Assembly (NCBI GenBank): GCA_023404495.1
Contig: JAEYBE010000026.1
Span: forward strand, 5,457-69,456
DNA length: 64,000 bases
Source: Actinomycetes bacterium
GTDB taxonomy: Bacteria > Actinomycetota > Thermoleophilia > Solirubrobacterales > JACPNS01
Reading direction: 5' to 3'
Position 1 is the first letter of the stretch, and every line of letters begins with the position of its first letter. Under the pieces are notes generated by a model. It was not told where the DNA came from. It worked only from the letters and a program-made list of their open reading frames with translations, and searched no databases. Positions 26,078-40,988 of the stretch are shown here, one piece after another. A program made the position numbers and the translations under genes.

Positions 26078-27226
26078 TCAATCCGAGGCGACGTCGGGGT
26101 CCAGGCGCGCGTCGAGGATCGGATTGGCCGTCGGGACTCCGCCCTCGGCGCGCCAGCGGCGGATCTGCCCCAGCGCACCCGAGACCGTCGCCACAAGGGG
26201 CACGGCGAGGATTCCTCCGATCACCCCGGCGATGACGGTGCCGGCAAGCACCGTGGTGAGCGTCACCACCGGCACCAGCGCGACGCGGTCGCCGACGATC
26301 CGCGGGCGCAGGAAGATGCTGTTGATCTGCGAGAGGATCACGAGCACCAGCAACATGCCGATCATCGTCCAGATTCCGCCGGAGACAAACGCCATTGCCG
26401 CCACCAAAGCGCCGGACATCCAGGCGCCGATGATCGGCAAGAAGGCGAGCACAAACACGACGAGCCCGACGATTCCGGCGAGCTTGATCCCGAAGAGCAG
26501 CCCGAAGAGCGCCACTCCGCCGCCATAGATCGCGGCCATGATCGCGGTACCGCGAAGGTATCCGGCGAGCTTTGCATAGGCGGAGACGCCCAGTTCATTT
26601 AGTCCGGGGCGGTTGACCGGCGCGAAGAAGCCGAGCAGCCACTGCCAGTAACGGTCTCCCCCGGCCAACAAATAACCGGTCAACACGATTGTCAGGCCGA
26701 CGATCGCAGCCACTTGGGCGATCAACGGGGCGGCCGCCTTGACACCTTGCACGAGTGCGTCCTTGAGGTCTGGCACCGAATCCTTCACGTTGCTCTCGAG
26801 CGTGACGATCTGATCGTGCGAGAAGTTGAACGGCGGTCCGGCGAGCCAGTCGTAGAACTCGTCGCCGGTGTTGTCGAACGCTGCTTTGAAGGTGTCGATG
26901 TTCTTCAGGAACGGCGGGATCGCCAGCAATGCGAGCCCGGCGATCACGCCGAGCGCGACCATCACAGTCAGCGTCGCCGCAAAGCCCCGGGAGATCCCTT
27001 TGCGTTCAAACCAACCGGTCAACGGCGCAAGCACGGACGAGACGAGCAGCGCAAGCAGCAGCGGGATGACCACGAACTTCAGCTCGACGAGGATCATCAC
27101 GACGACCGCCAGTGCGACAAGGCTCACGAGGAATCGCCAGGACCAGCCCGCCGTCGTGCCCAGCACACCCCAGTCGTGACCGTCCAACGGGGGCGTCGGA
27201 TCGAACATCGATCGATCGCCGCTCAT
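26078..27226 (-). CDS. AI-2E family transporter (PerM/UPF0118)
   Basis: 382-aa polytopic membrane ORF with the length and topology typical of AI-2E. It overlaps the upstream gene by 4 nt (ATGA). Confidence 0.7.
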   Translation of the reverse strand: MSGDRSMFDPTPPLDGHDWGVLGTTAGWSWRFLVSLVALAVVVMILVELKFVVIPLLLALLVSSVLAPLTGWFERKGISRGFAATLTVMVALGVIAGLALLAIPPFLKNIDTFKAAFDNTGDEFYDWLAGPPFNFSHDQIVTLESNVKDSVPDLKDALVQGVKAAAPLIAQVAAIVGLTIVLTGYLLAGGDRYWQWLLGFFAPVNRPGLNELGVSAYAKLAGYLRGTAIMAAIYGGGVALFGLLFGIKLAGIVGLVVFVLAFLPIIGAWMSGALVAAMAFVSGGIWTMIGMLLVLVILSQINSIFLRPRIVGDRVALVPVVTLTTVLAGTVIAGVIGGILAVPLVATVSGALGQIRRWRAEGGVPTANPILDARLDPDVASD

Positions 27227-29310
27227 TCGTCTATTTGAACGTCAGCACCGGCGGCCGGGCGCACGCCAACCTCGGCGAGCCATTCGACCAGCTGCAGATA
27301 CATCTCCCGCGCCCCGATCAACTCGTCGGCTTCGCGTGACCACTCTGACGGCACGAGCGCAAACGGCTGGGTCTGGGTGCCGCCCAGCCCGCCGTGCGAA
27401 CCGACGAGCTCCTCGAACGCAGCGACCTCCCCGGACTCGGGGTCATACATGCTGACGACGTAGATATCGGGCGCGTTGGAGAAGCCGTTGTTGCGCGCGA
27501 GGTGCCGCGCGGCGTGCTTGCCGAAGTGCGCCAGCGGATCGCGGCCCTCGACCTCTCCGCTGTCAAGGTGATTCACGCCGTCTGCACCGATCGCCACCGG
27601 CCCGTCGGACGAATTGACCATCACAAATCCGACGCCAGGGTGCGTTGCGAGCGTCGTGATCAGCCCCGGGAACTCGCTCTCGATCGATGCGCGATCCAAA
27701 CGCTCAGAGAACTCAGGGAAGTAGACGAGCCCCAAATTGCCCGAAGCCAGCACGATCGCGTCCGGCTTCTCCTCGCCGCCTTCGATCGAGTCTTCGACGC
27801 GGTCGATCTCGGCCTCCGGACCAAGCCGTGCCTCGCCCGCCTCCGGCTGGCGCCGCTCGACGCTGCGCCGGACCATCGTCGCGGTTGCCCCGTCGGCATT
27901 GGCGATCTGTGTAACGGCGCCTCCGATGTTGCCCCAGGCCTCGTCCGCCGACTCGATCGCCGCGAGTTCCTTGCCCTCACCAATCGAGCGCTTGACCACG
28001 TCTTCGAGCGTCTCATCGAAGCGCTGCTTGAACGTCGCGCCCTGGGACTGGCCGTGGTCCGAGAGCACTACGAACTTGTACGGCCGTGGGGCGAACTCCG
28101 CGATCCGCTCGAGCCGCGCGAACTGCTGGTCAAGCCGCCGCAGCACGTCAAGCGCGTCGCGGCGCTCGATGCCGGAGTGGTGGGCCACCTCGTCGTAACC
28201 GACGAACGTCGCGTAGCTCACCGGCACGCCCTCGAACATGTCGCCGACCAGCGAGAAGATGTTGAAATCGCGCATCACCACCGTCATGCCCATGCGCAGG
28301 ATCGGATAGATGCCGCCGCGCGAGACGCGCGGCTGGATGTCCAGCTGACGCTGACGGCGCGCCTCGATCTTTTCCGTGATCACGTCCCAGATGCCGAGCG
28401 AGATCGTGCGGGACGGGTTGTAGGGGTCGGCGAAGTAGGCGTAGAAGTCGCGCGAGTAGAGCTTCTGCTTCACGCGACTCAGCGTCAGCAACGAGCGCGG
28501 CGCGTCGCCGGAAATCAGGTTGCCGCGGCTCGTGCCGCCGTAAGCAAGCAGGCCCTCGCCGGTCGAAAGCCGTTCCTCCACCATCGCGACGTCGCTGGCG
28601 CTGCTCGATGTGACGAGCTTGCCGGTCTCGCGCTCGTACCAGCGAAACGCTGGAATGTCGTCGTTGCGTCCCAGCAGCAGGCCGGCCTGGGATGCACTCG
28701 TTTGCGACGAGAGGTCGCACTCCCAGCTGACGATCCGGTGGCTCCCCTCCTGCATCCAGCGCGCCATCGTCGGTGCGTGTCCGTTGACGATCGCGCGGCG
28801 AAGCACCGGCTCGGCGAGGCCGTCGATCTCAAGAAAGAAGACGCCCGGCACGTCTGAGTGCTGGATCTCGCGCCCCTGGCGCCGAACCTGACGCCGCATT
28901 GCGCGCAGTACGACGCGCTCGTAGTACCAGTCGCGCTCACCGATTCCAAAGAGCGTCGAGAGCAGGATGTTCGCGACGGTGAGGACGATCACGATCACGA
29001 CGGCCGAGCTGGTCGTCACGTCGATTCCGTCCGCGAACTCGGCGGCCAGACTGATCACCACGGCGGCCAGGAAGATCGAGCCGAGGCCCATCGTGAAGAC
29101 CGCGAAGCGCAGCGCGAAAGAAATCACCAGCGGCCAGAGCAGCGCGTTGAAGAGCATGATCGTCGCGGCAACCAGGCACGCGATCCAGAAGTTCGGCAAC
29201 TCGAAGCCGCTCATCACGTTCGAGAGGATCCAGAGCACCTCGCCGTTGAACGCGACCAGCGCAAGCGCGCGCAGGATCGTTCCGAGAATCGCCCGCGCGC
29301 GGCCGGTCAT
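27223..29310 (-). CDS. Membrane-anchored alkaline-phosphatase-superfamily protein (nucleotide pyrophosphatase/phosphodiesterase-like) with a holin-like 4-TM N-terminus
   Basis: 695-aa ORF. The N-terminal ~120 aa are hydrophobic. AP-superfamily motifs FFLEIDGL, VAHHSG, VVLSDHGQSQG. Confidence 0.7.
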   Translation of the reverse strand: MTGRARAILGTILRALALVAFNGEVLWILSNVMSGFELPNFWIACLVAATIMLFNALLWPLVISFALRFAVFTMGLGSIFLAAVVISLAAEFADGIDVTTSSAVVIVIVLTVANILLSTLFGIGERDWYYERVVLRAMRRQVRRQGREIQHSDVPGVFFLEIDGLAEPVLRRAIVNGHAPTMARWMQEGSHRIVSWECDLSSQTSASQAGLLLGRNDDIPAFRWYERETGKLVTSSSASDVAMVEERLSTGEGLLAYGGTSRGNLISGDAPRSLLTLSRVKQKLYSRDFYAYFADPYNPSRTISLGIWDVITEKIEARRQRQLDIQPRVSRGGIYPILRMGMTVVMRDFNIFSLVGDMFEGVPVSYATFVGYDEVAHHSGIERRDALDVLRRLDQQFARLERIAEFAPRPYKFVVLSDHGQSQGATFKQRFDETLEDVVKRSIGEGKELAAIESADEAWGNIGGAVTQIANADGATATMVRRSVERRQPEAGEARLGPEAEIDRVEDSIEGGEEKPDAIVLASGNLGLVYFPEFSERLDRASIESEFPGLITTLATHPGVGFVMVNSSDGPVAIGADGVNHLDSGEVEGRDPLAHFGKHAARHLARNNGFSNAPDIYVVSMYDPESGEVAAFEELVGSHGGLGGTQTQPFALVPSEWSREADELIGAREMYLQLVEWLAEVGVRPAAGADVQIDE

Positions 29311-31537: not shown

Positions 31538-33439
31538 TCAGTCCGGCTGGACCGGACCCGAGGCGAGCACCTTGCGCACTTTGGCGGTCAGCGTCTCGAT
31601 GTCGTAGGCGCCCTCGTGGCGGCGGCCGTTGATGAAGAAGCTCGGCGTCCCGGTCACAAGAGCGGCGTCGGCACTCTCGACGTCATCGGCCACGCGCTCG
31701 GCAAAGCTGCGCGAGCGCAGGTCGTCCCAGAAGCGATCCACATCCAGGCCGATCTGCTGGGCGTAGTCGCGCAGATCCGAGAGCTCGATGTCGTGCTGAT
31801 GATCGATCATCAAGTCGTGCATCTCCCAGAACTTGCCTTGCGCGGCGGCGGCCTCAGCGGCCTCTGATGCGAGCTGCGCGCGCGGGTGCACATCTTGCAG
31901 CGGGAGGTGGCGCCAGACGTATGTGAGTTCGTCGTCGAAGCGTTCGAGCAGCGTGCGAACCGTGTCTTCGGCGCGGCCGCAGTATGGGCACTCGTAGTCG
32001 CCGTACTCGAGCAGCGTCACGCGAGCGCCGGCGGGGCCGCGGACGTGATCGCGTTCGTGATCGACCGGGACCGCGAGGTCTTCGATCAGCGCGGCGGGCG
32101 TCACGGATCCGCTTTTGCCGCGGGCGCTCATACGCGACGTAACGGAGATCAGCACGGCACCGAGCAGCGTCGATACGAGCGCCGCCACCAGCACGCCGAG
32201 CTTTGCCTCCTCAAGCGACTGTCCCTCGAACGCGATCTCAGCGATGAACAGCGAGAGCGTGAAGCCGATGCCGCAAAGGGCCGCTGCCCCAAAGACCGGT
32301 GGGATCTCAACCGGCAATGGCAGGCGACCAAGGCGCGGGTGCGCGGCGACAAGCGTCGTGATTCCGATACCGAACAGCTTGCCGAAGACCAACGCACAGA
32401 CGATTCCGATCGTCAGCGGCGAGGTCGCGGCGTCGCTGAGCAGCTCAGGCGTGATCACGATCCCGGCGTTGGCCAGGGCAAAGACCGGCACGATCAAGAA
32501 GCTCGTCCACGGGTGGAGTCCGAACTGCAGCCGCTCGTTCTCTGAGACCGCGTTCTGCACGTAGAGGCGCGCGCTGCGCGCAAGCTCGGCGGTCGGCTGC
32601 TCGCGGAAGAGCCGCGTGATCGCCGTCGCGCGCTCAAGGTCCTGGCGGGCCGGCGGCTTGGCCGAGATCGCCAGACCGATGAGAACGCCGGCAATCGTTG
32701 GGTGCACGCCCGACTGCGACATCGCGATCCAGATCGCGACGCCGATCAGCTCGTACGGCCGCTTGGAGAGCGGACCCCACCAGCGCACGAGCAGTGCGAG
32801 CGCCGCCAGCGCCCCGGCGGTAGCCAGCGCCCCCAGCGAGACGCTGGAGCTGTAGGCGAAAGCAATCACCAGCAGCGTGCCGACATCATCGGCGATCACC
32901 AGCGTCAGCATGAAGACGCGAAGGCGCGGCGGCAGACGCCGGCCGAAGATCGCCAGCAGGCCCAGCGCGAAGGCGGTGTCGGTCGGCATCACGACACCCC
33001 AACCGTGGGCATCGGAGCCGCCGGCGTTGAAGGCCAGGTAGATCGCGATTGGGAGCGTCATCCCTCCGAGCGCTGCCAGCACGGGGACCGCGACGCGCCG
33101 GCGTTCGCGCAGCTCGCCCATGTCGAACTCTCGACGCACCTCGAGGCCGACGACCAGGAAGAAGAAGGTCATAAGCCCGTCGTTGACCCAGTAATGCAGG
33201 TCGCCGCCGAGCGTGTGGCTGCCCAGCGCAATCGAGAAGTCAGTCGACCAGAACGATTCGTAGCCGTGCGGCCAGATGTTCGCCCAGAGCAGCGCCACCG
33301 CCGATGCGGCGAGCAGAACGATCGCGCCGGAGGTCTCGGTCTCGAGGTAGTTGCGCAGCGGCGCGGCGATGTTTCGTGTCCAGGCGGTGTGCCCGGAGAG
33401 ACTCCGGACCGCGTCGCCTGGTGTCGCCGCCTGATTCAT
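31538..33439 (-). CDS. nhaA: Na+/H+ antiporter NhaA fused to a C-terminal DsbA-like thioredoxin domain
   Basis: 633-aa ORF. NhaA core (LLWANIW..., WVNDGLMTFFFLVVGLEVRRE). The C-terminal ~190 aa carry CPYC in LLEYGDYECPYCGRAE and GTPSFFINGRRHEG. Confidence 0.85.
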   Translation of the reverse strand: MNQAATPGDAVRSLSGHTAWTRNIAAPLRNYLETETSGAIVLLAASAVALLWANIWPHGYESFWSTDFSIALGSHTLGGDLHYWVNDGLMTFFFLVVGLEVRREFDMGELRERRRVAVPVLAALGGMTLPIAIYLAFNAGGSDAHGWGVVMPTDTAFALGLLAIFGRRLPPRLRVFMLTLVIADDVGTLLVIAFAYSSSVSLGALATAGALAALALLVRWWGPLSKRPYELIGVAIWIAMSQSGVHPTIAGVLIGLAISAKPPARQDLERATAITRLFREQPTAELARSARLYVQNAVSENERLQFGLHPWTSFLIVPVFALANAGIVITPELLSDAATSPLTIGIVCALVFGKLFGIGITTLVAAHPRLGRLPLPVEIPPVFGAAALCGIGFTLSLFIAEIAFEGQSLEEAKLGVLVAALVSTLLGAVLISVTSRMSARGKSGSVTPAALIEDLAVPVDHERDHVRGPAGARVTLLEYGDYECPYCGRAEDTVRTLLERFDDELTYVWRHLPLQDVHPRAQLASEAAEAAAAQGKFWEMHDLMIDHQHDIELSDLRDYAQQIGLDVDRFWDDLRSRSFAERVADDVESADAALVTGTPSFFINGRRHEGAYDIETLTAKVRKVLASGPVQPD

Positions 33440-35431: not shown

Positions 35432-35470
35432 CCCCGCAACCTACACCCGAGTGCGGCGTGCCGGTAACAG

Positions 35471-35500
35471 AAACGCCCCGGCCGTATGGCCGGGGCGTTT
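35471..35500 (-). terminator. Rho-independent terminator downstream of collagen-like gene 1
   Basis: 13-bp perfect stem AAACGCCCCGGCC / GGCCGGGGCGTTT with loop GTAT. On the minus strand it is followed by TTTCTGTT. Confidence 0.6.
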
Positions 35501-35547
35501 CGAGTTCCAACTGCGCCGCAAGCTAGGTGCGGCTATTCAACCGTGGA

Positions 35548-36435
35548 TTAGTCGCCGTACGTCACCGAAATGAACGCAGACGTCAGGTTCGACGGCGCAC
35601 TCGTCGGCACGATGCCGAACGAGAGCAGGTCGCCGGCCGCGAATGACACCGTGTTGGTCATGTCGTGGCAACCGAGGCTTCCGACCGCCATCGTGCAGGT
35701 CACGCCTGGGTTCGCGCCGTTCTTGCGAACGGTGATCGTGTAGGTGGCACCCACACCGCCGGCGACTGCCGTCGGGGTGTTGATGCGCAGATTCCCGACC
35801 GTGCCGTCGACCGGCATCGCTGCCTGTCGTGCGGACTCGGTCGCACTCTCATCGTGGCGGTAGATGCCTGCGTAGCGAGCAGACGTGCCATTGAATCCTG
35901 CTTCGGTGCCGAGAATCGCGGCTGCCGTTGCATCGGCTCCTGGCTCGCCCTGCGGACCCTGGTCACCCTGCGGACCCTGGTCACCCTGCGGACCGGGGTC
36001 GCCCTGCGGGCCCTGGAGGCCCTGGACGCCCTGGTCACCCTGGACGCCCTGGTCACCTTGGACGCCCTGGTCACCTTGGACGCCCTGGTCACCCTGGTCA
36101 CCCTTGTCACCTTGGTCACCCTTGTCGCCCTGCGGACCCTGCGGGCCTGCCGGACCTGCCGCGCCGGCTGGACCAGCGACACCCTGGACGCCCTGAGCGC
36201 CTTGCGCACCCTGCGGGCCGGCCGGGCCGGGGTTGTTGACGATCGTGCGGACACGCTTGCCGCCGCAGCGAACAACGCCGGTCACGACGCGCACCTTGTT
36301 TCCGTTCGGATTCGCGCAGATAGTTGACTGCGTTGCAGCAGACGCGGTTCCAGCTGCGCCCAGCACGACGGCGAATGTGAGCGCCGCTGCCGTAAGCACC
36401 AGGAGGAGTCTGCCTGTGGACTTCATTGAAGTCAT
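35548..36435 (-). CDS. Secreted collagen-like triple-helix-repeat protein (paralog 1)
   Basis: Start taken at ATG 36435 ([33 protein letters not shown]), with GAAAGGA 8 nt upstream. A Cys-containing N-terminal module ([22 protein letters not shown]), then ~32 uninterrupted G-X-Y triplets, then a ~125-aa C-terminal globular domain. Confidence 0.8.
35938..36228. repeat. Tandem 9/18-bp coding repeats of the G-X-Y region of collagen-like gene 1
   Basis: For example, CTGGTCACCCTGGACGCC-type units are repeated back to back (GDQGVQ x4 on the coding strand). Confidence 0.85.
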
Positions 36436-36531
36436 TGGTCTAGTCCTTTCGACTACTTCCATCGTTCATTGCACTTGATTCCCCCAACGATTCCGTGCCG
36501 TGAGCAACGTCCTCGCCTACTGCTTCGATCT

Positions 36532-36566
36532 GGCGGCGGGTCTTGTACGGACCGCAACCCGCCGCC
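36532..36566 (-). terminator. Candidate terminator hairpin between the two collagen-like genes
   Basis: 10-bp GC-rich stem GGCGGCGGGT / ACCCGCCGCC with a 15-nt loop, 37 nt after the stop of gene 2. No T-tract. Confidence 0.4.
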
Positions 36567-36602
36567 ATATCCGAAGTTGATTCGTTTGGTGCCTCCCCGC
36601 CG

Positions 36603-37628
36603 TTAGTCGCCCATCAGCATCGTGAACGTGCCGTTCGGATTACCGGTCGCGGTGTTCGGCGTTGCCGCCAGCGAAACCAGGTCACCGGCAGCAAACGCCA
36701 CGCTGTGAGTGGTGTCCGAGCAAGTCGTGCTGGGGTTGGCGACGGTGCACGTAACGGCGGTGTCTACGCCGTTCTTGCGGATCGTGAACGTGTACGACCC
36801 CGTAGTCGGCGTTGTTTCGAGGCGGATGTAGAGCTTGCTGATATTGAGCGCCGCCGGAATAGCAGCCTGCCTCAGCGACTCGGTGGCGTTACCGCCACTA
36901 CGACCGAGCGAGCTGTACCGCACGCCTCCGCTGTTGGCCTGGATGTCTCCAAAGCCGATCGCGGCGTTCGGGCCGGCCGGACCGGTGTCACCCTGGGCGC
37001 CTGGCGTTCCCGGATCACCCTGGTCACCCTTCTCGCCTTGGAGACCTTGCTCACCCTGGAGACCTTGCTCGCCCTGGAGGCCCTGCTCTCCCTGGAGACC
37101 TTGCTCGCCCTGGAGGCCCTGGTCGCCCTGGTCGCCCTTGTCACCCTGGTCGCCCTTGGGACCCTCTGGACCGGTGGGGCCTTCGGCACCCGGCGGGCCG
37201 GCTTCACCCTGGAGACCCTGTTCACCCTGGAGGCCCTGCTCGCCCTGGAGACCTTGCTCGCCCTGGAGACCTTGCTCTCCTTGGAGGCCCTGCTCACCCT
37301 GGAGACCTTGTTCGCCCTGGAGACCCTGGTCGCCCTGGTCGCCCTTCTCACCCTGAAGCCCCTGCGGACCCTGAGCACCCTGCGGACCCTGCGATCCCGT
37401 CGCGCCGGGAACACCCTGCGCGCCCTGGGGACCCTGGGCTCCAACAGTCTCAATTGTGATCTTTCGTGTGCCGCTCTTGCAGCTCTTGTTGCCCTTGCGA
37501 ACCGTGACGCTCGAGCCCTTCTTGTTCGTACAGATCGTGACGGTTTCTGCGCTGGCGATCGACGGCAGCGCCGCGATCACTGCCGTGATGGCGACTGCCA
37601 CGACGACTAGCAATGACATCTTCTTCAT
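36603..37628 (-). CDS. Secreted collagen-like triple-helix-repeat protein (paralog 2)
   Basis: ORF track 36603..37691 trimmed to ATG 37628 (MKKMSLLVVVAVAITAVIAALPSIASA). N-terminal module TICTNKKGSSVTVRKGNKSCKSG, then ~52 G-X-Y triplets including (GLQGEQ)n blocks. The C-terminal domain is alignable to paralog 1 (ATESLRQAAIP.., YTFTIRKNGVDTAVTCT.., AFAAGDLVS.., ..MGD). Confidence 0.8.
   Translation of the reverse strand: MKKMSLLVVVAVAITAVIAALPSIASAETVTICTNKKGSSVTVRKGNKSCKSGTRKITIETVGAQGPQGAQGVPGATGSQGPQGAQGPQGLQGEKGDQGDQGLQGEQGLQGEQGLQGEQGLQGEQGLQGEQGLQGEQGLQGEAGPPGAEGPTGPEGPKGDQGDKGDQGDQGLQGEQGLQGEQGLQGEQGLQGEQGLQGEKGDQGDPGTPGAQGDTGPAGPNAAIGFGDIQANSGGVRYSSLGRSGGNATESLRQAAIPAALNISKLYIRLETTPTTGSYTFTIRKNGVDTAVTCTVANPSTTCSDTTHSVAFAAGDLVSLAATPNTATGNPNGTFTMLMGD
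36969..37442. repeat. Tandem 18-bp coding repeats of the G-X-Y region of collagen-like gene 2
   Basis: CTGGAGACCTTGCTCGCC-type units: two blocks of about 6 and 4.5 copies separated by a non-repetitive GEAGPPGAEGPTGPEGPK segment. Confidence 0.85.
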
Positions 37629-37916
37629 TCCGGTGTGCACGGTTTCTAACCTTCCGTTGCTGGTGTGGGGGATTTTTCCTTGCTCATGCACTGAGCGGCT
37701 TAGGGAAAAGATCGACTACTAGAGCCGGTCCTTGAGCAAAAACTGAGTAGTGGTGGAACAATTGTCCGGTCCTCCACCTACTCAAACTTGTTCACCATCT
37801 TTGCGCCCACACCCGACGGATATATTGCCCACTCGCGGTATGTCGGCGCAGTCAACGGCGAACCACGACTGTTCTTCGACATCATCCGACCGATTCAGCC
37901 CGCAGAATTTCATTTA

Positions 37917-38465
37917 ATGCATAACTTGAACTCAAAGCAACGTCGTGCCGGTCGAACCCGATGGCTTCCAACATTCGTTTGTGTTTCCGCGCTGGTGCTG
38001 GTCGCCGCCCTGCTCGCGTCAGGGTGTGGCGACGACGAGAAACTCACTCCGGGCTCCCGAATCGTCACCGCGAGCCAGTTGCAGGCCGAGGCGAAGTCGA
38101 TCGGCTACCCGATCTACTGGCTGGGTGAGATCGACGGCAAACAGCTCGAGTTCACCGATCGGGCAGATGGGCGCGTTTACGTCCGCTATATCCCGGACGG
38201 CGCGAAGGCCGGAACACAGGACAAGTACCTGACCGTGGGAACGTACCCGATGGAGAATGCCTACGGCGTCGTGACCGCGATTTCAAAGAAGGACGGCGCG
38301 AAGTCGCCGCCGGTCAAGGGTGGCATCGCGGCAGTCGCGCCGGCCAAGCCGGACAGCGTTTTCGTTGCCTTCAAGGACCAGGATCTGCAGATCGAGGTGT
38401 ACGACCCCAACCCGAGCGCCGCGCTCGAAGCAGCCACCTCGGGCAACCTCCAGCAAGTCAAGTAG
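37917..38465 (+). CDS. Putative lipoprotein, function unknown
   Basis: ORF track 37788..38465 trimmed to ATG 37917 (MHNLNSKQRRAGRTRWLPTFVCVSALVLVAALLASGCGDDEK). Lipobox is LLASGC. Confidence 0.6.
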   Translation: MHNLNSKQRRAGRTRWLPTFVCVSALVLVAALLASGCGDDEKLTPGSRIVTASQLQAEAKSIGYPIYWLGEIDGKQLEFTDRADGRVYVRYIPDGAKAGTQDKYLTVGTYPMENAYGVVTAISKKDGAKSPPVKGGIAAVAPAKPDSVFVAFKDQDLQIEVYDPNPSAALEAATSGNLQQVK

Positions 38466-38518: not shown

Positions 38519-38592
<74 letters not shown>

Positions 38593-38599
38593 TTCGTGG

Positions 38600-38630
38600 A
38601 AACGCCCTCTGATGAGGGCGTTTTTTGTTT
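38600..38630 (+). terminator. Rho-independent terminator after tRNA-fMet
   Basis: Stem AAACGCCCTC / GAGGGCGTTT, loop TGAT, followed by TTTTTTGTTT. Confidence 0.8.
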
Positions 38631-38679: not shown

Positions 38680-40335
38680 CTATTTCGTAAGCGTCAGCGC
38701 TTTCCTTGTCGGAATCTCCTGCCGTCCCGCAGCCCCGGTTGCCCGCAGATAGAGCGTGTACTTCCCCGCCGGGAGCGTCTTCCTCAGCTTGTAACTCCAG
38801 CGCGTGGTGCCTTCGACGGTCAGCCACCTACTCGGCAGACACTTCCTGTTGGTCGCCTTCGTTCTCGCGAAGTTCGACTTGCTGTTCGAGAGCTGCAGGC
38901 ATCGCTTCTTCCTTTTCAAGAGCTTCGCGTCGGTCTTGACGAGGGCGAGTTCAACTTTGGTGATTCCGTCGCCAGTCGCCGTGCCGGAGAAGCGCTTGAA
39001 CTTCCTGGCCTTGAGCTTCTTCGTGCTGGGATGGCTGATTGACGCGGTCGCTGGCGTCTTGCCGAGGATCCGTGCGACAGCGAGGACGGCTGGTCCGCCG
39101 GGTGCGACATGCCCGACCACGCTGATTTTCCCGTCTGCGGCAACCGAGACGTCGCGGGCTTCGCCCTGAACATTTCCGAAGACGTTCAACACGTGACCGC
39201 CGTTGCCAAACTCCGTGTCGGCCGTTCCATTCGAATTGAAGCGAGCGACAAGCGGTGCGTACCCGGATACGCCGTACGCCAGGCTGTTTCCGACCGCAAC
39301 GATCTTGCCGTCAGGCGCCACTGCGACACGGTTGAAATAGTCCTCCTCCCGGAATCGTGCAAGTACCGCGCCGCCGGTCCCGAAGCTCTGGTCGGGTAAA
39401 CCGTCTGCTGTGAAGCGAAGAAGCACAGCGCGGTACTTTCCGCCCGAATAGCCGCTCCCGGCGAGGATGATCTTGCCGTCAGGTTGGACCGCCATGTCTT
39501 TGACGCCGGAGTCGTCACCGGGAAGTGTCGTCGTGAACTTCCCGGCGGAGCCAAACGTTGTGTCAAATCCGGTGCCGGTGGCTGCGAGTCGCGCGATACG
39601 GAATGCCTCGCCTCCATCGAGCACCTTCCCGGCGACGACGAAACGACCGTCGGGGAGGCCATGGAGCGTGCTCATGTAGCCGCTACCAGCCGCCCCGTGG
39701 CCACCGGCGGAAAAGCCCGCGTCGTACGAACCGTTGCTCGTCAGTCGGTACACGACGGAGTTCCCGGCAAAGATCGACGAGGCAATCACGAGAACGTTTC
39801 CGTCGGGCAGCGGCGACATGTCCGAGCACTCGTCAGGGTTGCCCGGGAGTCCGTCGAGGCCGGTGAAACCGGACACTCCCCAGCCGTTGTCGTCCTTGCC
39901 GCCCGACGTCAGGCCCCATACGGCGCAGAACGCTTCAGTGCTGCCGTCCGGATCGTTGCTGCCGCTGACCAGAATTCGTCCGGTCGGAGATATCTCCATC
40001 GACGTGAGCGTGCACCCCTCACTGTTGCCAGTTTTGAGCGCGTGCGTTCCGTTCTCACCGAAGCTCGAATCGATCGATCCCCCGGGCAGGAAGCGCGCAA
40101 CGATGCACGAGTCATACGGCGACGAGTCGAGATACCCGGCCACGACGTACTTCCCGTCTGGCTGTATCGCGCCGACCCGGCCAAAGAGGTTGTCTGTCGT
40201 TGCCAGCCAGTTAAAGCCATCGCTTGAGAAGGTCGGGTCAAGGTCGCCTGCCTTCGCGCCAGCTGAGGGGACAAGAACGGCCAGCAGACAGATCGCCAGG
40301 AGAATCGGCGCGAGTTTGTTGAATCGGCGGATCAT
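38680..40335 (-). CDS. Secreted delta-60-repeat (seven-repeat beta-propeller) protein with a basic Ig-like C-terminal domain
   Basis: ORF track 38680..40572 trimmed to ATG 40335 (MIRRFNKLAPILLAICLLAVLVPSAGA). Seven units of the pattern G..D..FG..G ... .PDGK..V.G (e.g. DLDPTFSSDG..QPDGKYVVAG; GLPDQSFGTGG..APDGKIVAVG). Confidence 0.75.
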   Translation of the reverse strand: MIRRFNKLAPILLAICLLAVLVPSAGAKAGDLDPTFSSDGFNWLATTDNLFGRVGAIQPDGKYVVAGYLDSSPYDSCIVARFLPGGSIDSSFGENGTHALKTGNSEGCTLTSMEISPTGRILVSGSNDPDGSTEAFCAVWGLTSGGKDDNGWGVSGFTGLDGLPGNPDECSDMSPLPDGNVLVIASSIFAGNSVVYRLTSNGSYDAGFSAGGHGAAGSGYMSTLHGLPDGRFVVAGKVLDGGEAFRIARLAATGTGFDTTFGSAGKFTTTLPGDDSGVKDMAVQPDGKIILAGSGYSGGKYRAVLLRFTADGLPDQSFGTGGAVLARFREEDYFNRVAVAPDGKIVAVGNSLAYGVSGYAPLVARFNSNGTADTEFGNGGHVLNVFGNVQGEARDVSVAADGKISVVGHVAPGGPAVLAVARILGKTPATASISHPSTKKLKARKFKRFSGTATGDGITKVELALVKTDAKLLKRKKRCLQLSNSKSNFARTKATNRKCLPSRWLTVEGTTRWSYKLRKTLPAGKYTLYLRATGAAGRQEIPTRKALTLTK

Positions 40336-40988
40336 GCAGCAACCGGCGCCGCGATCTGCGTTTCGTCTCCGTGGGCGGACTGCCTGCGCACGAGCAGGAC
40401 AGCCATCGCCACAAACCAGATCGGCTGGACGACGAACACCGCGATACCGCCAGGCGTGAAACAGAGCACACCCATTACGACGCTCGACCACGCAATCCAT
40501 TTCGGCAGCGTCGCGGTCTTCAGGCCGCCGATTCCGACGGCGAGGAAGAGAGACGCGCCGCCGATCATCCAAGGCAAAAACGTGTACGAGGAGAGCAGTG
40601 CTAGGGCCAGCGTGGCGGCCTCATAACCCTTGTCTCCGGCCGAGAATGCAGCCACGGCGACCATCCCGGCGATTGACATCGAGATTGCCAGCGCGATCCC
40701 GCCGGCGAACGCGAGTGACGAGTAGATCGACTCCCCGGCCTCACCCGAGCGCAGCGTCGCGCGAATTTCAGTGGCAAAGAACAACGCGAACACCGCGAAG
40801 AGGTTCGCGAAGATGAAGTTGGCGATCATTCCGGCGGTCTGGTTGTCAGGTCCGTAGTAGTCGAGAAACTTCTCAGTGGAGGAAGTGTCGGTCGGGGTGT
40901 TGCCAGCGATCACCATGTAGGCGATGAGCGAGATCGCGCAGATAATCCCGGTGTAGGGCAGAAAGCGCCGGAATCCATCGATTTGCAT
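40332..40988 (-). CDS. Integral membrane protein (about 6 TM helices), function unknown
   Basis: ORF track 40332..41189 trimmed to ATG 40988 (MQIDGFRRFLPYTGIICAISLIAYMV...), with AAGGAG 7 nt upstream. ATGA overlap with the delta-60 gene. Confidence 0.6.
   Translation of the reverse strand: MQIDGFRRFLPYTGIICAISLIAYMVIAGNTPTDTSSTEKFLDYYGPDNQTAGMIANFIFANLFAVFALFFATEIRATLRSGEAGESIYSSLAFAGGIALAISMSIAGMVAVAAFSAGDKGYEAATLALALLSSYTFLPWMIGGASLFLAVGIGGLKTATLPKWIAWSSVVMGVLCFTPGGIAVFVVQPIWFVAMAVLLVRRQSAHGDETQIAAPVAA

Follow-up and report, generated by a model that had tools for sequence, protein, structure and literature searches.

Tandem collagen-like proteins with a common cysteine-bearing foot and phage-related heads: candidate envelope fibres in a Thermoleophilia genome

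Collagen-like proteins that bacteria secrete and that carry a globular head are familiar from a few pathogens and spore formers, and to our knowledge they have hardly been studied in environmental Actinomycetota. More generally, good descriptions exist of bacterial collagen-like proteins in which a non-collagen domain drives trimerisation (reviewed in PMC8968730). Virophage fibre paralogues have one N-terminal anchoring domain, collagen-like stalks of 14 and 38 G-X-X and different beta-sandwich heads, and the authors of that work propose that the different lengths stand on one surface; the mosaic adhesive trimer (MAT) fibres of Bdellovibrio are cell-encoded, surface-displayed and trimeric, with phage-like interchangeable adhesive tips (PMC10769870). 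Here we describe two tandem paralogous genes, A and B, that encode secreted collagen-like proteins in a 64,000-nucleotide stretch of contig JAEYBE010000026.1 (the window) from an Actinomycetes bacterium of the class Thermoleophilia, together with a lipoprotein gene divergent from gene B. The closest relatives of the locus are found in metagenome-assembled genomes (MAGs) of Conexibacter and other Thermoleophilia. A literature search found no paper linking collagen-like proteins with Conexibacter, in keeping with the suggestion in an earlier note on this DNA (the original prediction) that such an envelope structure had not been described for this kind of organism; the head family as such, the cysteine foot and the conserved membrane partner all appear to be undescribed.

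Genes A and B are both encoded on the reverse strand and have the same order of parts, namely a Sec signal peptide, a module with two cysteines, an uninterrupted G-X-Y tract and a C-terminal head. Gene A (35548..36435, in an open reading frame [ORF] spanning 35548..36462) codes for 295 amino acids from the ATG at 36435, with the signal peptide at 36337-36435, the cysteine N-module at 36229-36336, a tract of 33 triplets at 35932-36228, the head at 35551-35931 and the stop codon at 35548-35550. Gene B (36603..37628, ORF 36603..37691) codes for 341 amino acids from the ATG at 37628, with the corresponding parts at 37548-37628, 37443-37547, 36966-37442 (53 triplets) and 36606-36965, and the stop codon at 36603-36605. 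The ATG at 36435, with AAAGGA 9 nt upstream, is the likeliest start of gene A; gene B most likely begins at the ATG at 37628 or at the GTG at 37640, which is preceded, at a distance of 9 nt, by GGAAGG. Read from the sequence, both N-termini are of the Sec type, with a basic n-region that leads into a hydrophobic core and, after it, the cleavage motif ASA. The layout had been claimed in the original prediction, and the ORFs, the triplet counts and the alignment all agree with it; the tract lengths given there (~32 and ~52 triplets) are one triplet short in each gene, and the C-terminal motifs quoted are present in the alignment of the two heads. The two proteins align from end to end (BLASTP E = 3e-52), and their heads, of ~120 residues each, are 41% identical. 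This homology, synteny in two related MAGs and purifying selection establish that the two reading frames are real and not chance occurrences. Two antisense ORFs that run across the collagen tracts (35665-36327 on the forward strand, 220 amino acids, and 36543-37610 on the forward strand, 355 amino acids) are not genes but by-products of the repetitive GC-rich coding strand, and we note that they could be mis-annotated as genes.

We favor the interpretation, to which we assign an even balance of probability, that A and B are exported homotrimers in which a stalk of collagen connects the head, at the C-terminus, with an N-terminal foot on the envelope, and that they are probably cell-surface fibres. 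The gene structure, the order of domains, the fold class of the head, its homology to phage tips, the chromosomal synteny, the association with the partner gene and the pattern of the Cys pair are observed; that the chains trimerise and form a triple helix, that disulfides are made, that foot and lipoprotein anchor the fibre at the surface, and that it serves in adhesion, we infer in the following manner. Both proteins would be exported by the Sec system, after which the head would trimerise and bring the three chains into register, stabilised by a disulfide and acting as a ligand-binding tip; the acidic collagen tract would then zip into a triple-helical rod of about 28 nm in A and 45 nm in B (calculated from the standard rise of 0.286 nm per residue). 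The basic cysteine foot that is common to both paralogues would fix the base of the fibre to the envelope, for which the neighbouring lipoprotein is the likeliest candidate dock, and one cell could thereby carry two fibre lengths and two different heads on one common foot. The head would come from the same pool as phage receptor-binding tips, a kinship that suggests a surface glycan or similar ligand, and its likely role would be adhesion to a polysaccharide or other surface ligand.

The head is recognised in both proteins by a hidden Markov model (HMM), with E = 2e-42 for gene A and E = 4e-46 for gene B. The AlphaFold2 model of the gene B head is an all-beta sandwich (predicted local distance difference test score [pLDDT] 95.3, predicted template-modelling score [pTM] 0.88), and Foldseek matches it to solved structures in the PDB with E from 3e-4 and template-modelling (TM) scores of 0.45-0.59. 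These include C1ql1, C1QL3, Cbln1, EDA, 4-1BBL, Eiger and ExsFA, all of which are obligate trimers of the C1q/TNF type, as well as the spike knob of phage phi812 and the tail fibre of phage 7-7-1; the Foldseek probability is 1.00 for C1ql1, C1QL3, Cbln1, EDA and 4-1BBL, with a root-mean-square deviation of 6-7 A. Predicted viral structures match more closely (TM 0.82-0.86, 26-34% identity), most of these matches being collagen-repeat proteins from giant viruses, Klosneuvirus among them, or from uncultured Caudovirales. A Pfam scan of A and B at E <= 1 gave no family besides Collagen and no match to a C1q, TNF or BclA model, the head profile has no relative among the sequences of solved structures (only chance matches to lipoyl domains), and a search with the alignment of the A and B heads yielded 36 proteins that lack annotation and in which Pfam recognises no domain. 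The original prediction's suggestion of a C1q/TNF-like jelly roll is thus supported at the level of fold, by the model and its PDB matches, and finds no match among sequence profiles; as modelled, the head is a beta-sandwich that is C1q/TNF-like at the fold level only.

An exhaustive profile search shows that the head family is very large, with 18,134 cluster representatives at E <= 1e-3. In 149 of the best 150 matches the head is present in 3, 6 or 9 tandem copies, a typical member having about 400 amino acids and three copies, and no Pfam family is found among these 150 (examples of tandem-copy proteins are P0037-P0186, L146 10001-11191 and L147 10001-11212). A three-copy member is modelled as one compact unit (pLDDT 92.5, pTM 0.90) that aligns in domain order with engineered single-chain adiponectin, C1q and APRIL/BAFF trimers (E = 3e-8 to 1e-6). 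That copies come in multiples of three, that the fold is of this class and that the head is attached to collagen all point to a trimer. We note also that the three-copy phage proteins look like natural single-chain versions of a trimeric fibre tip. A free-standing head protein of 100-130 amino acids was considered and dropped, as several homologues of this kind proved to be truncated gene calls, the ends of long collagen ORFs broken by frameshifts. For example, two loci in Acidobacteriota MAGs (L001 2876-8387 and L003 5771-8315) contain very long collagen-like ORFs that end in the same head and in which G-X-Y tracts alternate with repeats of ~40 amino acids (LNWKGLW..YNGNSYVS); these ORFs are split by frameshifts in the long-read assemblies, such that gene callers report only a small 'stand-alone' head protein.

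We have compared cellular and viral copies of the head, using an 11-sequence head alignment as the query for the genome scan (a 38-sequence alignment being too divergent). Among 58 loci from species-representative genomes the head is nearly always at the C-terminus of its ORF, and in ~55% of the copies a G-X-Y tract precedes it; most of the host genomes are MAGs of Thermoleophilia, Acidimicrobiia, Acidobacteriota, Myxococcota, Planctomycetota, phyla of the candidate phyla radiation and Dependentiae, and a few Bacillus-group genomes carry the head without collagen. In 80 viral contigs from IMG/VR we identified 89 ORFs with the head, C-terminal in 80 of them. Phage tail modules encode two of the three-copy proteins, one next to a beta-helix protein of the pectate-lyase type and the other downstream of a tape-measure protein, and another homologue is encoded just downstream of a capsid-containing gene block in a 46-kb phage contig. 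The head is therefore homologous to phage tail-fibre tip domains. A tblastn search with the head and a three-copy relative found no match in 50,697 deposited phage genomes, from which it follows that the phage relatives are all uncultured. The two head cysteines (TC-T ... C-SD) distinguish the cellular from the viral copies, since both are present in 31 of 36 bacterial collagen-bearing copies and in only 3 of 100 viral ones, as would be expected if the cellular copies are exported and disulfide-bonded and the viral ones are folded in the cytoplasm. Among the sequences inspected, relatives from Thermoleophilia, Acidimicrobiia, Acidobacteriota and Myxococcota have Sec-like leaders wherever the contig includes their N-terminus.

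This homology raises the question of whether A and B are instead a prophage remnant or domesticated tail-fibre genes, such as those of a tailocin, with assembly in the cytoplasm. The kinship of the head with phage tail-fibre tips, including weak PHROG tail-fibre matches (phrog_7049, E = 1.8e-4), is consistent with such an origin, as are a tRNA-Met gene 0.9 kb away and the presence on several viral contigs (L095, L096, L098, L108, L111, L116, L129 and L139) of two adjacent head-ending genes, an arrangement that parallels the A/B pair. However, A and B each start with a Sec signal peptide, viral copies are essentially devoid of the Cys pair and of the N-module, collagen tracts are present in only 2 of the 89 viral head ORFs, two relatives have the locus in synteny with housekeeping flanks, and no phage or integrase family was found within ~15 kb. 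Specifically, no phage gene family was found among the ORFs scanned from ~22 to 55 kb of the window, in line with the original prediction, which had seen no phage genes nearby. We consider this the weakest of the rival explanations, and a very improbable one. The original prediction had named a match of the head to phage tail-fibre heads within a degraded prophage as the finding that would count against it; the homology of the heads is real, but the signal peptides, the conserved synteny and the Cys pair speak against the prophage.

The synteny can be followed in two MAGs. The closest head relative in the genome scan, in an uncultured Conexibacter MAG (L008), lies on a contig of 2.6 kb that is 85% identical to the window in nucleotide sequence and has the same gene order, with the lipoprotein gene, an orthologue of gene B and the beginning of one of gene A. 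The second locus (L015), in a MAG labelled Thermoleophilaceae, has the gene A orthologue followed downstream by the same GAF, PQQ/cytochrome c and NhaA genes, with 93-97% amino acid identity. These two loci together imply that the tandem pair is older than these lineages and occupies a stable chromosomal position in a member of the Thermoleophilia. Gene B is under purifying selection, with a ratio of nonsynonymous to synonymous substitution rates (dN/dS) of 0.08-0.24. Between the window and L008 its collagen tract has dS = 0.81, and its head, which is 67% identical, has dS = 0.78 and dN/dS = 0.24, a value on which positive selection on the head was rejected. Over the N-terminal part of gene B, 61 of 62 residues are identical and dS = 0.09. 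Comparison of the foot (61/62) with the head (67%) thus identifies the foot as the constant part, and the stalk and head as the variable parts. At the DNA level, the 5' ends of both genes (36206-36505 and 37470-37670), including the upstream region, signal peptide and Cys module, are 97-99% identical to L008, compared with 62-89% elsewhere; a recombination mosaic, gene conversion or RNA constraint are possible explanations.

The foot is a basic module of ~35 residues with two cysteines and a net charge of about +6 in A and +7 in B; that of gene B is TICTNKKGSSVTVRKGNKSCKSGTRKITI. Its pattern is a hydrophobic residue, any residue and a cysteine, separated from a closing C-K/R-x-G by 16-27 residues with much Lys, Arg and Gly, and an HMM of the module recognises gene A with E = 1.6e-10. 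With this HMM, applied locally to the fetched loci, the module was found at the mature N-terminus of other collagen/head proteins in Thermoleophilia and Acidimicrobiia loci; it has no match among 5,117 viral ORFs, and a search of a 5.8-billion-protein collection with the N-module alignment gave no match, the module being too short for the tool. The spacing of the two cysteines varies among the homologues, from 16 to 27 residues, and because of this variability an intrachain hairpin fits better than a fixed interchain knot.

The stalks of both proteins match Pfam Collagen (PF01391; E = 3.5e-17 and 62.4 bits in gene A, E = 1.9e-28 and 98.4 bits in gene B, cut-off 27.2). Their triplets are mostly GDQ, GVQ, GEQ, GLQ and GPQ, with glutamine at the Y position in 23 of 33 triplets of A and 37 of 53 of B, and the net charge of the tract is about -11 per chain in A and -20 in B. 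The DNA that codes for the tracts consists of degenerate 9-, 18- and 54-nt repeats, and indels between orthologues occur in 9- or 18-nt units, with the glycine period kept. The extremely acidic, Gln-rich character of the tracts, the hexapeptide DNA repeats that encode them and the wide variation in their length (33 to 172 triplets among head-bearing relatives) could all be accommodated if A and B were instead a structural or matrix component, for example part of a sheath, the scaffold of a biofilm or a layer that binds cations or minerals, with the acidic rod as the functional part and a head that does no more than drive folding. Against this, relatives with a conserved foot have exchanged heads, the protein sequence of the head has evolved faster than that of the foot yet under purifying selection, and the head is homologous to phage receptor-binding tips. 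Together these three features suggest that the head carries specificity, and we regard a matrix role as improbable.

Next to the pair is the partner gene (37917..38465 on the forward strand), which is divergent from gene B and codes for a 182-amino acid lipoprotein with the lipobox LLASGC and the motifs IYWAGE, VRYIP, TVGTYP and VEVYDP. Its extracytoplasmic domain has ~140 amino acids and has no relative in Pfam, NCBIfam or the PDB. Homologues of the partner are anchored by a lipobox or an N-terminal transmembrane segment, and they adjoin collagen/head genes in L008, in L014 (Acidimicrobiia), in L017 and in L040. In the reverse direction, a metagenome scan seeded with the partner gave 43 loci (L148-L190), 21 of which have a collagen or head ORF within 1 kb. 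With the analysis restricted to the informative loci, having at least 700 nt of flank, the proportion is 18/34, an estimate that derives from pattern-seeded and mostly short metagenomic contigs. The partner is therefore a conserved neighbour of collagen genes with the Cys module, one that the original prediction had missed. Wherever the N-terminus of a partner-adjacent collagen ORF is on the contig the Cys module is present, while the C-terminal ends differ, being this head, a second Cys-bearing head or a short Cys peptide. The second head (C..G..[VIL].[GL]GGG ... YAIC) is seen in L167 8495-10708, L170 787-2928 and L153 1892-2629, and the peptide, a 30-amino acid C-terminal sequence (TGEICAGSNGNLTWGACGSKGGTTIRILYQ) that resembles the N-terminal Cys module, occurs on low-GC contigs (L179 5082-7667, L184 4023-7646 and L185 2-1240). 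Some of the partner loci have a GC content of only 34-40%, and if they are of freshwater origin, which is assumed from the IMG sample series only, then the pair is not confined to high-GC Actinomycetota.

The conserved partner also bears on a further possibility, that A and B are released as soluble, lectin-like 'defence collagens', in which the N-terminal cysteines cross-link trimers into bouquets that agglutinate or coat other cells or particles. Their part order is that of C1q and adiponectin (an N-terminal Cys region, collagen and a C1q-like head), A and B have no recognisable wall anchor, and many secreted proteins are encoded nearby, all of which would suit a released product. However, a membrane-anchored partner is conserved beside the genes, and the Cys spacing of 16-27 residues fits an intrachain hairpin better than a fixed interchain knot. 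We consider release unlikely, if somewhat less so than a matrix role.

Several observations weigh against the interpretation of A and B as surface-anchored homotrimeric fibres. The tracts are proline-poor (Pro makes up about 18% of X and Y positions in A and 12% in B), and with this low proline content and the strong net charge their stability as a triple helix is uncertain. Superposition of the three-copy head model on single-chain C1q trimers gives a global TM of only 0.24, and the geometry or packing of the trimer may therefore differ from that of C1q, and we make no claim that the two share a quaternary arrangement. A and B have none of the recognised wall anchors, as neither an LPXTG motif, an SLH domain nor a C-terminal transmembrane segment was found. 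The partner is possibly connected with the foot, but the connection is one of gene neighbourhood only, and seven Thermoleophilia loci with the N-module (L023, L025, L026, L027, L035, L036 and L038) have no partner within 6 kb, such that the association is not obligatory in that direction.

A broader proposal, which we put forward tentatively and think clearly less probable than the fibre interpretation itself, is that these genes represent an undescribed two-part envelope fibre system of soil Actinomycetota (Thermoleophilia and Acidimicrobiia), with relatives in low-GC freshwater organisms, consisting of a small membrane-anchored docking protein and Cys-foot collagen fibres whose stalks vary widely in length and whose swappable heads derive in part from the phage receptor-binding repertoire. 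If this is true, the cell would own an adhesion kit resembling tail fibres. If the fibres themselves are confirmed, they would be a surface structure for a poorly known bacterial class and an example of cells and phages sharing binding heads. The head family, which has neither a Pfam model nor a solved structure, links bacterial collagens, giant-virus collagens and the tail-fibre tips of uncultured phages, and its natural three-in-one-chain versions look useful for structural work. The Cys pair offers a simple marker that separates exported from cytoplasmically assembled versions of the head, and, for fibres in which no known wall anchor is present, the conserved partner gene and the shared Cys foot suggest a way of anchoring that can be tested.

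Genes A and B look like independent transcription units, each with its own hairpin. The one 3' of gene A (35470..35501, reverse strand), identified as an inverted repeat and by RNA folding, has a perfect 14-bp stem and a 4-nt loop followed by UUUCUGUU, and is a probable terminator (-50.7 kcal/mol for the 93-nt region, z = -5.2); the one between B and A (36527..36571, reverse strand) is an inverted repeat with a stem of 12-15 bp and 93% complementarity (RNA fold z = -2.3), and is the probable terminator of gene B. The original prediction assigned each gene its own hairpin terminator, and there is indeed a strong hairpin after each, but neither has a clear U-tract and a simple scan for U-tract terminators listed neither. 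With a difference of 20 triplets between the tracts and a separate probable terminator after each gene, two homotrimers are likelier than an A/B heterotrimer, and the heterotrimer that the original prediction had allowed for is unlikely on account of the tract difference. The divergent intergenic region between gene B and the lipoprotein gene (37629..37916) presumably contains the promoters; it is visibly AT-richer than its surroundings, and the part adjoining gene B is 89-97% identical to the Conexibacter MAG (L008), but a sigma-70 promoter scan of the region found no consensus. The tRNA-Met (CAU) gene at 38519-38592 (forward strand) is followed by a 12-bp hairpin and T-run at 38598-38625, the only classical intrinsic terminator found in the region.

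The surroundings are those of an ordinary chromosome, with a GC content of 63-68% throughout the window, and the neighbours include an NhaA-DsbA fusion, a PQQ-propeller/cytochrome c protein, a GAF protein, a two-component system, a GH3 glycosidase, an esterase, a lipase and TetR regulators. The fusion (31538-33439, reverse strand) joins an NhaA Na+/H+ antiporter to a C-terminal DsbA-like thioredoxin domain and lies near several exported Cys-containing proteins. A 695-amino acid protein encoded at 27223-29310 (reverse strand) has a four-transmembrane 'phage holin 4_2' domain (PF04020) together with a type I phosphodiesterase domain; it was rejected as a sign of a prophage, being a cellular membrane enzyme. 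A secreted DUF5122/delta-60-repeat propeller protein is encoded 1 kb from the collagen pair (38680-40572, reverse strand), and we note that in two Dependentiae genomes (L054 3670-6354 and L056 2956-6354) a DUF5122 propeller, collagen and the same head are present in one polypeptide. These fusions may reflect a functional link to the neighbouring propeller gene, or may be coincidence.

A and B can be compared with several collagen-like proteins and fibres already described. Scl1 and Scl2 of Streptococcus pyogenes and Lcl of Legionella are likewise secreted collagen-like proteins with a non-collagen trimerising or binding domain, but Scl has an N-terminal head and a C-terminal LPXTG anchor, neither of which is present in A or B, and the NCBIfam models for Scl (NF038330, NF038329) and Lcl (NF046116) score 66-113 bits against cut-offs of 325-500, with matches to the collagen part only. 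BclA of the Bacillus anthracis/cereus exosporium has the same order of parts, with attachment at the N-terminus, a stalk of collagen whose length varies and an outward-facing, trimeric, C1q/TNF-like C-terminal head, and the ExsFA/BxpB jelly rolls are represented among the fold matches of the head by ExsFA (7r5i, TM 0.53, at the fold level only). However, A and B have no sequence match to BclA, their N-module is unrelated, their host is no spore former, their stalks are built of GDQ, GEQ, GLQ and GVQ rather than GPT, and in place of the basal layer of an exosporium they have a membrane lipoprotein as partner. The statement that the layout mirrors BclA- and Scl-type fibres is thus correct for the part order, which is BclA-like, although by sequence neither protein belongs to the BclA, the Scl or the Lcl family.

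C1q, adiponectin and the collectins also have an N-terminal Cys region, collagen and a globular trimeric head, the C1q family provides the best PDB fold matches, and the C1q chains are also encoded by tandem paralogous genes. The likeness is again one of fold only (TM about 0.5, 11-16% identity); in addition, the unequal tracts of A and B argue against a heterotrimer, and A and B are bacterial proteins with a phage-related head. The Klosneuvirus proteins A0A1V0SIY6 and A0A1V0SJL1 and the Caudovirales protein A0A6J5ST55 do have the same head family (TM 0.82-0.86, 28-34% identity), placed C-terminal to collagen repeats as in A and B, but they are viral, and the homologues on viral contigs are largely without the Cys pair and have no N-module. 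The virophage fibres share with A and B the arrangement of paralogues with a common anchor, stalks of unequal length and different heads, although the likeness is in design only, the virophage anchor being a beta-prism that docks on the capsomer where A and B have the Cys module and a candidate lipoprotein dock. Finally, the MAT fibres of Bdellovibrio, a Gram-negative predator, resemble our interpretation of A and B, by description only, in that they are fibres encoded by the cell and tipped with phage-like domains.

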